Position numbers and translations under genes: made by a program. From assembly GCF_024223415.1 (NCBI RefSeq), contig NZ_CP100507.1: a stretch of 4,051 nt of DNA. One strand, written 5' to 3'. The DNA comes from Escherichia coli. GTDB lineage: Bacteria; Pseudomonadota; Gammaproteobacteria; Enterobacterales; Enterobacteriaceae. Positions 1-4,051 of the stretch are shown here, in pieces (position 1 is the stretch's first letter; every line of letters begins with the position of its first letter). Below the pieces are notes generated by a model. That model saw only the letters and a list, made by a program, of their open reading frames with translations. It was not told the origin of the DNA and searched no databases.

Positions 1-887
1 GGGCGTTAAGTGGTCGCGATTATATATCTAATGCCGCTGTTCATACTAGGAAAAGAACAGTTATATGTCTTGATATCACCAATTTTTATCCCAGCATTAG
101 TAAAAAAGATGTTTGTTCTATTTTTAAAAATTTAATGCGTTTTTCTCCTGATGTTTCTTTATGCTTAACGGAACTTGTGACGTTGAATAATAAGGTCCCT
201 CAGGGTGGGTGCTGTTCTAGTTATATTGCAAATCTTTTATTTTTTAATAGTGAGTATAATCTCTATAATAGATTGAAGTCTATGGGGCTTTCATATTCAA
301 GGCTTTTAGATGATATTACTATATCTTCTGATAAGGATCTTTCATCAGAGGAAAAAACAAAAGTAATAAAACTCGTTCACGGAATGGTGAATCAGTACAG
401 ACTTTCAATAAATGAAAGTAAGACAACGATAGAGCACTCAAAAGATTCGTCTTCTAAACTTAGTGTCACTGGGTTGTGGGTAAAGCATGGTGTTCCTAAG
501 TTAACAAAAGAAAATAGACGTTATATCAGGTACTTAGTTTATATATGTAAAAAACAAGGTGCTTATGAACGTCATACGAAAGAGTACCATGATTTATGGA
601 ATAGATGCTCTGGCAAGGTTGCTCAAATGTCGAGGCTTGGGCATGTCCAGGCGGTTGAATTGAGGGCGATTCTTTCTGAGATAATGCCAGTTTATGATGA
701 TTACAAGATATCTAAATTAAAGTTGATGGCTAAGCACTATCTAAATAAGTTTACGCCGCCTTTAACTGATGATCAGATTAGGAAAATAGATAGGATGCTC
801 TATGATTTTGATATAGTAGGGCGGACTAATAAGAATCTTGCAAAACTATATAGACGTAAGCTCGTGGCATTACTTCCAGATAGGTGA
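1..887 (+). CDS. Retron-type reverse transcriptase, C-terminal 294 codons plus stop (5' part at 3799..4051; the two join in frame if the molecule is circular, giving about 379 aa)
   Basis: The frame of the 135..887 ORF has no stop back to base 3. Translation from base 3: ALSGRDYISNAAVHTRKRTVICLDITNFYPSISKKDV... Contains NAAVH (NAxxH, nt 30-44), LDITNFYPSI (RT motif 1/2, nt 69-98), VPQGG (nt 195-209), an xxDD box reading LLDD (nt 303-314) and SVTGL with the retron-associated VTG triplet (nt 465-473). Stop TGA at 885-887. Confidence 0.9.
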   Translation, partial: ALSGRDYISNAAVHTRKRTVICLDITNFYPSISKKDVCSIFKNLMRFSPDVSLCLTELVTLNNKVPQGGCCSSYIANLLFFNSEYNLYNRLKSMGLSYSRLLDDITISSDKDLSSEEKTKVIKLVHGMVNQYRLSINESKTTIEHSKDSSSKLSVTGLWVKHGVPKLTKENRRYIRYLVYICKKQGAYERHTKEYHDLWNRCSGKVAQMSRLGHVQAVELRAILSEIMPVYDDYKISKLKLMAKHYLNKFTPPLTDDQIRKIDRMLYDFDIVGRTNKNLAKLYRRKLVALLPDR

Positions 888-891
888 TTAT

Positions 892-1095
892 ATGGAAAAT
901 GGATTTGTTAATTTTTATGACCATGTTAAAGGGTATGGCTTTATAAGGCGTGAGCGTGGACGTGATGTTTTCTTTCGGTATGATGATTTTTTGTTTTTAG
1001 GGCATGATGTCGATATATGTAAAGGTATTTTAGTTAGGTTTAAATTAGAAAAAACAGATAAAGGGTTTAAAGCTGTAGCGATTCAAAAGGTATAA
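892..1095 (+). CDS. Cold-shock-domain (CspA-like OB-fold) protein, 67 aa; probable retron accessory/effector protein
   Basis: ATG at 892, 4 nt after the RT stop, preceded by AGGTGA (882-887) as Shine-Dalgarno. Translation MENGFVNFYDHVKGYGFIRRERGRDVFFRYDDFLFLGHDVDICKGILVRFKLEKTDKGFKAVAIQKV carries the two cold-shock RNP motifs (KGYGFI like KGFGFI; VFFRY like VFVHF). The track ORF begins at a TTG at 838 overlapping the RT; the ATG at 892 with its SD is preferred. Confidence 0.85.
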   Translation: MENGFVNFYDHVKGYGFIRRERGRDVFFRYDDFLFLGHDVDICKGILVRFKLEKTDKGFKAVAIQKV

Positions 1096-2958: not shown

Positions 2959-3225
2959 TTGGTTAAATTACTATTGGTGAGAAATGAATATTTCAATAAA
3001 AACAATGACTTAAAAACCGTTGCTCGGTTTGACGGTAAAACCTTAAGAGATGCCTTTTCGAGAAAAATAGCGACTTTTGATGGCAAGGTTTTAAGGGATG
3101 CCTCTTTAAAAAAAGTAGCAACCTTTGACGGTCAGAATTTAAGAGATGCTAGTTCAAAAATTATCCTGAGTGCCGATGCTGAGGTTGGGATTGTTGTTAT
3201 GGCCTTTGTAGCTGAGTTGATTTGA
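2959..3225 (+). CDS. Hypothetical small protein with three tandem 16-aa repeats and a hydrophobic C-terminus; non-ATG start (TTG 2959, or TTG 2974 / GTG 2977)
   Basis: Translation ...TVARFDGKTLRDAFSRK IATFDGKVLRDASLKK VATFDGQNLRDASSKI ILSADAEVGIVVMAFVAELI. Differences between repeat copies fall largely on synonymous third positions (Ala gct/gcg/gca; Asp gac/gat; Gly ggt/ggc; Arg aga/agg; Lys aaa/aag; Thr act/acc), a coding-type pattern. No in-frame ATG and no clear SD; in-frame stop at 2950-2952 limits the 5' end. Confidence 0.5.
   Translation: MVKLLLVRNEYFNKNNDLKTVARFDGKTLRDAFSRKIATFDGKVLRDASLKKVATFDGQNLRDASSKIILSADAEVGIVVMAFVAELI
3019..3162 (+). repeat. Tandem direct repeat, 3 x 48 bp (units 3019-3066, 3067-3114, 3115-3162)
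   Basis: Conserved cores tttgacggtaaaaccttaagagatgcc / tttgatggcaaggttttaagggatgcc / tttgacggtcagaatttaagagatgct at exact 48-bp spacing. Confidence 0.85.
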
Positions 3226-3282: not shown

Positions 3283-3310
3283 GTGACAGAAAGATAAAAA
3301 ACTTTATAAT
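3283..3310 (+). promoter_or_regulatory. Sigma70-like promoter facing the retron: -35 GTGACA (3283-3288), 16-bp spacer, -10 TATAAT (3305-3310)
   Basis: Perfect -10 consensus and 5/6 -35 at canonical spacing; predicted start about 3317. Lies about 190 nt upstream of a1, so it may drive the retron ncRNA-RT-csp transcript, but no nearer promoter could be identified by eye. Confidence 0.4.
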
Positions 3311-3507
3311 AATCAGCGAAGCGGGCGAACCACGCCTGGCTCTCGCTCTTTAACAAATGGTTACGTGTATGTTGCGCAAGGAAACCGATGCCTTGTTTTT
3401 AAGGCGATCTCGCATGAGATCATGACCGGCCTGGCCGCTAATTAATGGTGAGAACGCCCCTGAGCGTGTATCAGCACTAAAAGAATAGCGACGATTGTCT
3501 GGCAATG

Positions 3508-3520
3508 TGAGTTAAAAGTC
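3508..3520. repeat. Retron a1 inverted repeat (left arm)
   Basis: 13-bp perfect inverted repeat partner of 3780-3792; does not extend on either side. Confidence 0.6.
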
Positions 3521-3594
3521 CCAAAGAGCCAATAGAGTTTTTCCTTGCTTTCCTACTGGTCTGGCAAAATTTCATAACCAATAGGAGTTGCATC

Positions 3595-3777
3595 ATGTTT
3601 ATTATCAACATCAACATTAACGTAACCAAGAGCTCTTCATCTTGTTCTGGAGACGGTCAGATGAAGAAAAAAAGAGAGGTTGGCTCTCTGGAGGCACTGA
3701 AAAAAACACAGTTTTTGTTTTCTATGTGCTTGATTATGTTTAAAGTAATAGATTACGTATCGAAACTTTTTAACTAA
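3595..3777 (+). CDS. Hypothetical 60-aa ORF lying entirely inside the a1-a2 (msr-msd) region; possibly not translated
   Basis: ATG at 3595 preceded by AGGAG (3583-3587) at 7-nt spacing; stop TAA at 3775-3777. Protein MFIINININV... is low-complexity and Lys-rich. Position inside the putative retron ncRNA argues that it may be fortuitous. Confidence 0.2.
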   Translation: MFIINININVTKSSSSCSGDGQMKKKREVGSLEALKKTQFLFSMCLIMFKVIDYVSKLFN

Positions 3778-3779
3778 TC

Positions 3780-3792
3780 GACTTTTAACTCA
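3780..3792. repeat. Retron a2 inverted repeat (right arm), 6 nt upstream of the RT ATG
   Basis: Exact reverse complement of 3508-3520. Flanked by a near-direct repeat actttttaact (3765-3775) / acttttaact (3781-3790). Confidence 0.6.
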
Positions 3793-3798
3793 AACATC

Positions 3799-4051
3799 AT
3801 GAATAAACCCAGGTTTAATGGAACTCCTGTTGCATCTTTGGATTCTTTATCTGCGATGTTAGGCATAGAAAGAAAAAGATTGGACTGGATAGTCAAGTCT
3901 GTATCGATGTCGTACAAGCAGTTTAAGGTTGAAACAGGGAAGAATAAAAAAGAAAGGCAAATTTTTGAACCCAAGAGATCTTTGAAAGGAATTCAAAAAA
4001 AAATAAATAAAGAGATTTTTGAGAAAATTGATTACCCTCATTATTTGCATG
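3799..4051 (+). CDS. Retron-type reverse transcriptase, N-terminal 84 codons (continues past the window end; see 1..887)
   Basis: ATG at 3799, open to the last base of the window. Translation MNKPRFNGTPVASLDSLSAMLGIERKRLDWIVKSVSMSYKQFKVETGKNKKERQIFEPKRSLKGIQKKINKEIFEKIDYPHYLH is colinear with the N-terminal region of retron RTs (RQIFEPKRSLKGIQ resembles the Ec86-type IYQPSRELKALQG segment as I recall it). No Shine-Dalgarno is evident, so the start is the first in-frame ATG after a2. Confidence 0.85.
   Translation, partial: MNKPRFNGTPVASLDSLSAMLGIERKRLDWIVKSVSMSYKQFKVETGKNKKERQIFEPKRSLKGIQKKINKEIFEKIDYPHYLH

Follow-up and report, generated by a model that had tools for sequence, protein, structure and literature searches.

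Type V retrons are defined by a cold-shock-domain (CSD) protein that accompanies the retron reverse transcriptase (RT), with Retron-Sen1 (Se72) as the example (Mestre et al. 2020, PMC7736814), and a 2026 survey treats this CSD architecture as canonical for the type. The present analysis concerns one such retron on Escherichia coli contig NZ_CP100507.1, a stretch of 4,051 nucleotides (nt) that was analysed in full and is called the window below, and centres on csp, the gene of its cold-shock protein (Csp), and on a small open reading frame (ORF) located upstream of the RT. Earlier work on Se72 reported its plasmid location, cold-shock ORF and unusual DNA product (Simon et al. 2019, PMC6868368), and the canonical priming G is absent from it (PMC6868368). 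Lambda-vir phages that escape the Se72 system carry mutations in the gam-bet-exo operon, Gam alone sets off the toxicity of the system, and a recB mutant could not be transformed with it; these toxicity and defence experiments used the entire cloned operon (10.1101/2022.08.27.505566). E. coli carrying Se72 was protected against one phage of the test panel. The pairing of RT and Csp in Se72 was reportedly described by Rychlik in 2001, and the abstract of that work is said to state that the 72-nt retron DNA depends on csp, the RT and an ORF of unknown function alike. Besides Rychlik 2001 and Mestre 2020, the literature on Retron-Sen1 (Se72) includes Pilousova & Rychlik 2011 and Stokar-Avihail 2022.

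A second relevant precedent comes from type VI retrons, in which a small protein is the toxin and a helix-turn-helix (HTH) protein is the regulator (10.1101/2025.10.22.683967). The HTH DNA-binding protein had first been listed as the associated protein of this type (PMC7736814). The ribosome-binding site and start codon of the type VI small protein are sequestered, derepression is brought about by phage-induced multicopy single-stranded DNA (msDNA), with a conserved 7-nt direct-repeat pair proposed as the mediator (10.1101/2025.10.22.683967).

The pairing of Csp with the RT in the window adds nothing new because the element is a textbook type V retron, classified in 2020. What the comparative evidence brings out is the component missing from the NCBIfam and PADLOC models, namely a conserved, translationally locked small ORF within the retron RNA. 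We give an even chance to the reading in which Csp is the coupled nucleic-acid chaperone or regulator of the RT, with the small protein as the likelier toxin.

The csp gene and its coupling to the reverse transcriptase

Taken as a whole, the window is a circular ColE1-type plasmid in complete form; it matches E. coli plasmids such as NZ_CP066843.1 from end to end with 100% identity, and its backbone, RT, csp and upstream region share 97.8-100% identity with Salmonella and E. coli records that carry the Se72 effector annotation. That csp encodes the CSD partner in Retron-Sen1 (Se72), a type V retron residing on a 4,051-bp ColE1-type plasmid, is nearly certain; the window holds the same element in an E. 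coli variant of that length, in which nothing material differs and only the parts are read differently here. The retron genes and the start region of csp lie as follows:

3799..4051, + strand: N-terminal part of the retron RT, the gene of which spans the numbering origin of the plasmid (PADLOC RT_V, 423 bits)
1..887, + strand: C-terminal part of the retron RT, in frame with 3799-4051; stop codon TGA at 885-887
882..888, + strand: Shine-Dalgarno (SD) sequence of csp, AGGTGAT, composed of the last RT codon AGG (882-884), the stop codon TGA (885-887) and a T
892..1095, + strand: csp, encoding a 67-amino-acid (aa) CSD protein identical to WP_000427298

The RT of 379 aa is intact across the plasmid origin, matches the protein annotated in public records, and scores higher on the PADLOC model RT_V (423 bits) than on RT_VI (242) or RT_IV (219). 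A truncation of the RT at the window edge was considered and is ruled out by the circularity of the plasmid, the frame of 3799-4051 continuing at base 1.

The csp gene extends from an ATG at 892-894 to a TAA at 1093-1095, its 67 codons specifying the product MENGFVNFYDHVKGYGFIRRERGRDVFFRYDDFLFLGHDVDICKGILVRFKLEKTDKGFKAVAIQKV, and is separated from the RT stop codon by the 4-nt spacer TTAT (888-891). The motif AGGTGAT is perfectly complementary over 7 nt to the 3' tail of 16S rRNA, and its core G stands approximately 7 nt from the AUG. An earlier note made from the letters of this DNA had placed a CSD ORF of 67 aa at 4 nt after the RT stop, with an SD supplied by the last RT codon and the stop, and its coordinates proved exact when the sequence and its translation were read.

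To place this arrangement in context, type V loci were sampled at graded distances, on plasmids of Klebsiella, Hafnia/Pectobacterium, Edwardsiella and Halomonas and on one betaproteobacterial chromosome, and further loci were gathered by searching exhaustively with an RT profile and then looking up the contigs; a word-indexed protein search with Csp returned near-identical copies only. Wherever both genes are intact, in 12 type V loci (11 tabulated plus L032), the RT-csp junction measures between -8 and +14 nt, and such a recurrence lies far outside what chance would give. The Klebsiella junction is identical in sequence (AGGTGATTATATG), an 8-nt overlap of the two genes is found in three independent lineages, and several type V loci have no recognisable SD. 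Because the junctions are tight everywhere and several are devoid of an SD, what is conserved is that csp is coupled to RT translation, rather than the SD as such. Co-expression of csp with the RT is certain, and the gene arrangement indicates that csp is probably translationally coupled to it. Together with the matches to RT_V and CSD_V, these preserved junctions bear out the claim of the earlier note that csp is a retron RT partner, tightly and probably translationally coupled. Between the window and Klebsiella, the ratio of nonsynonymous to synonymous divergence (dN/dS) is 0.28 for Csp and 0.08 for the RT, so that Csp evolves approximately 3.5 times faster and is nonetheless under purifying selection.

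One of the sampled loci, on the Edwardsiella piscicida plasmid p2 (L006, NZ_MZ098225.1), has an RT that was matched by tblastn in three pieces lying in different frames and is thus apparently frameshifted or a pseudogene. Its small ORF and csp are still open, and the GTG start of this csp overlaps the preceding ORF by 4 nt.

A distinct subfamily of cold-shock proteins

The CspA-like character that the earlier note had recognised is confirmed by several routes. Csp matches the CSD family of Pfam (PF00313, E=6e-8), the NCBIfam equivalog NF038236 ('retron Se72 family effector') with 85.2 bits against a cutoff of 82, and the PADLOC model CSD_V with 3.4e-25. The note had also proposed predicting the structure of Csp alone, and the resulting AlphaFold2 (AF2) model is a five-stranded barrel (strands 2-10, 15-20, 26-29, 47-55 and 58-66) with a predicted local distance difference test (pLDDT) score of 92, which Foldseek superimposes on CspA, CspB and CspE (1mjc, 1csp, 3i2z) with template modelling (TM) scores of 0.83-0.91.

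In an alignment with three E. coli reference Csp sequences, the nucleic-acid-binding motifs RNP1 (KGYGFI) and RNP2 (VFFRY) fall opposite KGFGFI and VFVHF of CspA. Common to the type V Csps are RNP1, Phe28 and aromatic residues at positions 9 and 30, while the equivalent of Trp11 is unconserved. The acidic β2-β3 loop of CspA, ITPDDGSKD, is replaced in type V Csps by a basic loop that is one residue shorter, IRRExGRD, in which R20 is invariant; the variable part of the protein is the β3-β4 loop and not the binding face.

Housekeeping CspA and CspE, which are RNA chaperones and antiterminators, and CspD, a toxic replication inhibitor, have the same five-stranded oligonucleotide/oligosaccharide-binding (OB) fold, the RNP1 consensus KG[FY]GFI and most of the RNP2 aromatics in common with Csp. 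On the other hand, Csp reaches only 16-34 bits on housekeeping models with cutoffs of 115-152, carries the basic loop in place of the acidic one, has not kept the Trp11 equivalent, and is encoded, as retron csp genes always are, in one operon with an RT. Orthology to the housekeeping equivalogs was not found: the scores of Csp are 33.8 bits for CspD (cutoff 115.4), 30.2 for CspE (120) and 16.5 for CspA (130), and 10 other type V Csps behave alike. Across the family, the Se72 model gives type V Csps 64-100 bits and the CspA, CspC, CspD and CspE models give them 22-54 bits, and by these profile scores they form a distinct subfamily. A special kinship with CspD was considered and is not consistent, with CspE matching equally well or better across the family and all matches falling far below the cutoffs.

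A small ORF within structured RNA upstream of the reverse transcriptase

Between the putative promoter of the operon and the RT, the window contains a small ORF enclosed in a structured RNA, with the following features:

3497..3505, + strand: direct repeat copy 1, GTCTGGCAA
3508..3520, + strand: 5' arm of an inverted repeat, TGAGTTAAAAGTC (a1-like), a 13-nt perfect repeat closing the RNA around the small ORF
3546..3592, + strand: riboregulator hairpin, in which the anti-SD TTTCCTA pairs with the small-ORF SD TAGGAG (helix 5) and the loop holds direct repeat copy 2
3559..3567, + strand: direct repeat copy 2, GTCTGGCAA, within the SD-sequestering hairpin
3595..3777, + strand: small ORF of 60 aa with a strong SD, 21 nt upstream of the RT; candidate riboregulated toxin
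3634..3667, + strand: strongly covarying hairpin within the small ORF (helices 7 and 8), with 6 compensatory pairs and the conserved loop CUGGAGACGG
3780..3792, + strand: 3' arm of the inverted repeat, GACTTTTAACTCA (a2-like), between the small-ORF stop and the RT start

All 13 of the type V loci examined have an ATG-initiated ORF with an SD, 57-85 aa in length, whose end lies 5-41 nt ahead of the RT; shuffling yields such a small ORF by chance at a rate of 1-3% per locus. A comparable ATG-initiated ORF before the RT exists in one of four type IV loci; this ORF, at 1250-1470 of an Ec48-like locus (L024), has at least 55 codons and ends 30 nt before the RT. Most of the type V small proteins are strongly cationic and all have a hydrophobic C-terminal segment. 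AF2 predicts for the protein in the window a basic, disordered N-terminal half and a single long hydrophobic C-terminal helix (residues 29-59). The small proteins have no match in NCBIfam or PADLOC.

The RNA that carries this ORF is itself structured. The bracketing inverted repeat recurs in distant lineages with arms of 9-11 nt (P<=0.014), and RNAalifold predicts for the four alignable loci a consensus of 77 pairs, 15 of them with compensatory changes. Of the cells in this consensus, 94.5% are paired, compared with approximately 40% when the partners are slid, and 0/500 shuffles reach the observed values. The SD of the small ORF is paired in both the consensus and local folds, and its AUG lies inside helix 6 (3595-3599/3607-3611). 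Furthermore, a pair of direct repeats of 8-9 nt occupies fixed sites, approximately 96-119 and 33-53 nt ahead of the ATG and separated by 59-72 nt, and its sequence is lineage-specific (GTCTGGCAA, GTCTGGCGC, GTTGAACG, GTCAAGCTT), both copies changing together; in 9/12 loci the pair reaches P<=0.015 when positions are tested by shuffling.

Alternative long-range pairings, 3579-3593 with 3818-3832 and 3497-3508 with 3832-3843, join the SD region of the small ORF and repeat copy 1 to the opening ~45 nt of the RT coding sequence (15 nt at 87%; helix 2 of the consensus fold). Through such pairings, translation of the RT may be tied to the riboregulator's state.

Comparison with type VI and type IV retrons

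The locus in the window resembles type VI retrons (Retron-Vpa2, with a hybrid RNA (hyRNA), a small protein (SP) and an HTH protein) in several respects. Both belong to RT clade 3 and place a small ORF between a structured non-coding RNA (ncRNA) and the RT, both sequester the SD and AUG of this ORF in helices within a transcript closed by inverted repeats, and both have a conserved pair of short direct repeats, one of which lies in the riboregulator hairpin. In both, the small protein carries a hydrophobic C-terminal helix, and both systems include a small nucleic-acid-binding partner protein. The two types differ in this partner, which is a CSD protein downstream of the RT in type V and an HTH protein upstream in type VI, and their small proteins have no sequence homology. 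The trigger in type V is Gam alone, unlike in type VI, and the type VI HTH protein represses DNA synthesis, whereas Se72 DNA is detectable at baseline and reportedly depends on csp.

Retron-Eco6 (Ec48), of type IV, has a closely related RT, the same Gam/RecBCD trigger and a partner gene that lies directly 3' of the RT or overlaps it. This partner is a protein of 220-230 aa with two transmembrane segments (PF28197), unlike Csp, and three of four type IV loci are without a comparable upstream ORF.

Function of Csp and of the small protein

By analogy with type VI, the small ORF is a stronger toxin candidate than Csp. The earlier note had put Csp forward as the candidate effector, a proposal that gives way here to the conserved, sequestered small ORF found in every type V locus. 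Its accompanying doubt that a bare OB-fold could act as a classical toxin was well placed, the system-level data having been obtained with the whole operon. The word 'effector' as applied to Csp is an annotation label, given to WP_000427298 by the Prokaryotic Genome Annotation Pipeline (PGAP) as 'retron Se72 family effector protein'.

In the mechanism we favour, the RT and Csp would be made together through translational coupling, and Csp would bind single-stranded parts of the retron RNA, the reverse-transcribed DNA, or both, by means of its retained RNP1/RNP2 aromatic surface and the family-specific basic loop IRRExGRD. Csp would act as a nucleic-acid chaperone or regulator of the RT and not as the killer, which would more probably be the 60-aa small protein encoded within the retron RNA (3595-3777). 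The SD and AUG of this protein, locked in helices, would be freed when phage Gam inhibits RecBCD and the states of retron DNA and RNA shift; Csp would either enable the DNA synthesis that opens the riboswitch-like hairpin or directly bind the repeated GUCUGGCAA-type motifs. This reading fits the type VI precedent, the usual biochemistry of CSD proteins and the reported need of csp for the 72-nt DNA, which would suit a cofactor role. The present data show the fold, the geometry of the coupling, the conservation, the covarying RNA structure and the upkeep of the small ORF; beyond these, we have moderate confidence that Csp binds nucleic acid in a regulatory role and that the small protein is translated and toxic. 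Somewhat more tentatively, we propose that type V retrons as a whole are hybrid-RNA systems like type VI, in which the toxin is the riboregulated small protein of 57-85 aa and the CSD protein is a chaperone or regulator of reverse transcription, of hairpin opening, or of both, possibly via GUCUGGCAA-type repeats.

Were the small ORF the toxin, the 'effector' annotation of thousands of type V Csps would be wrong, and the inverted mechanism reported for type VI, which works by derepression of translation, would extend to a second retron type. CSD proteins would gain a role as regulators of an immune riboswitch-like RNA, and the clade-3 retron types IV, V and VI would all kill via small hydrophobic proteins.

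Several observations weigh against this assignment. The small ORF has almost no third-position bias and a dN/dS of 0.35-1.0, a pattern that does not establish its translation. Its synonymous divergence is 0.24, compared with 0.5-0.6 in the neighbouring genes, and we attribute both this low value and the flat third-position pattern to constraint from RNA structure; because such an overlapping constraint lowers synonymous change, dN/dS cannot reveal a coding signature here. The covariation comes from four sequences only, and the alignment that shows it also supplied the structure. Between the type V small proteins and the type VI SP there are neither SP_VI hits nor a BLASTP link, compared with 1e-30 to 1e-38 for type VI controls, and the connection between the two is therefore one of analogy only. 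The type IV effector, also of RT clade 3, occupies the same downstream, RT-overlapping place as Csp. The literature searched yielded no experiment in which Csp and the small protein were tested apart, and the papers and databases name Csp as the effector. Overproduced E. coli CspD is toxic, so that a bare CSD could in principle kill.

These last points lead to the annotated view, in which Csp itself is the toxic effector and, once Gam inhibits RecBCD, is released to coat cellular single-stranded DNA (ssDNA) or RNA and blocks replication or translation in a CspD-like manner. We consider this unlikely, although it agrees with the tripartite retron paradigm and the type V classification, with the curated names 'retron Se72 family effector' and CSD_V, with the gene position it has in common with the Ec48 effector, with the toxicity of the whole system upon Gam expression or recB loss, and with the retained nucleic-acid-binding motifs and extra basic loop. 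It leaves unexplained the riboregulated small ORF kept in 13/13 loci, it finds no consistent special similarity to CspD to build on, and no paper testing the toxicity of Csp on its own was found in the literature searched. A natural plasmid that has lost the ncRNA and the N-terminal part of the RT still carries csp intact, a point that presupposes its expression there, and the parallel assignment of the type VI DNA-binding protein as effector proved wrong (10.1101/2025.10.22.683967). The opposite simplification would make Csp a mere processivity or priming cofactor for Se72 reverse transcription, with its self-primed, double-stranded 72-nt product; the small ORF would never be translated, being open as a by-product of an msr-like RNA, and defence would fall to the RT-DNA or a host factor. 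The flat codon-position pattern, the suppressed synonymous divergence and the covarying helices inside the small ORF, as well as the reported requirement for csp in DNA synthesis, would all be expected under this view, which is nevertheless quite improbable: lineages without nucleotide similarity keep an ATG-initiated ORF that has an SD and at least 55 codons (joint chance far below 1e-10), the conserved anti-SD/SD hairpin is sensible only if translation matters, every small protein has the hydrophobic C-terminal helix, and Gam-triggered toxicity requires some toxin.

Very improbable, too, is a role for Csp as a sensor of free ssDNA ends or phage transcripts that arise when RecBCD is blocked, relaying the signal to the RT or the small protein. 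The generic ssDNA and ssRNA binding predicted from the CSD fold would suit such a role, as would RecBCD inhibition being the trigger and the faster evolution of Csp relative to the RT, a pattern often seen in sensors. However, the variation lies in the β3-β4 loop and not on the binding face, and types IV and V share the Gam/RecBCD trigger and close RTs while their partners are unrelated, for which reason the authors of 10.1101/2022.08.27.505566 place sensing in the RT/ncRNA.

Two natural broken copies bear on the choice between Csp and the small protein as toxin. In pSCU-105-2, IS26 deleted the RNA together with the small ORF and RT residues 1-142 and left csp identical, whereas in pB27_1 an ISEcp1-blaCMY-2 insertion deleted csp and the RT C-terminus without changing the RNA or the small ORF. 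As far as the remnants are expressed in these contexts, neither is evidently lethal, and the IS26 variant, which keeps csp without the ncRNA or an intact RT, argues weakly against strong intrinsic toxicity of Csp.

These copies also illustrate the recruitment of the Se72 plasmid into resistance plasmids carrying mph(A), blaTEM-1 and blaCMY-2 (NZ_CP051740.1 and NZ_AP027425.1; L027 and L029) via IS26 and ISEcp1-blaCMY-2. Reciprocal partial retrons are the result, with csp only in one and the RNA and small ORF only in the other.

Plasmid context

Outside the retron genes and RNA, the window contains the following features:

1176-1276, - strand: RNAI of ColE1 (Rfam)
1933-2127, - strand: rop
2387-2734: MobA-like gene, encoding a MobA/MbeC-like accessory protein (NF041264)
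3283..3310, + strand: promoter-like site GTGACA-16-TATAAT (11/12), a match to consensus alone

The site at 3283..3310 is, on its motif, probably the promoter of the retron operon. An Rfam scan of the window found the ColE1 RNAI only and no retron RNA family. The RT-csp operon ends approximately 80 nt upstream of the ColE1 RNAII start and the RNAI terminator hairpin, in the same direction (1096-1280), and no clear terminator is seen 3' of csp in this interval; retron read-through could thus enter replication-primer transcription and alter copy number.

Although the plasmid is typed as 'mobilizable', its mobilisation module encodes only the small MobA/MbeC-like accessory protein and no relaxase, and it appears reduced compared with the type V plasmids of Hafnia and Pectobacterium, which retain MbeB, MbeD and MobC. 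Between mobA and the adjacent orf88, a perfect 11-nt palindrome with a 1-nt spacer (AGAATCGCGCT/AGCGCGATTCT, 2900-2922) is a possible protein-binding site, oriT-related element or terminator.

The gene orf88 (2959-3225, + strand) encodes a protein of 88 aa annotated as hypothetical (WP_224471576), with three tandem repeats of 48 nt, or 16 aa (xATFDGKxLRDAxxxK), at 3028-3171 and a hydrophobic tail. We rejected it as a retron component on the grounds that it is unconserved beyond close relatives and lies upstream of the best promoter-like site, and it probably stands outside the retron. Its relatives comprise a weak partial match in Klebsiella, with none in Hafnia or Edwardsiella, and a length variant in pB27_1.

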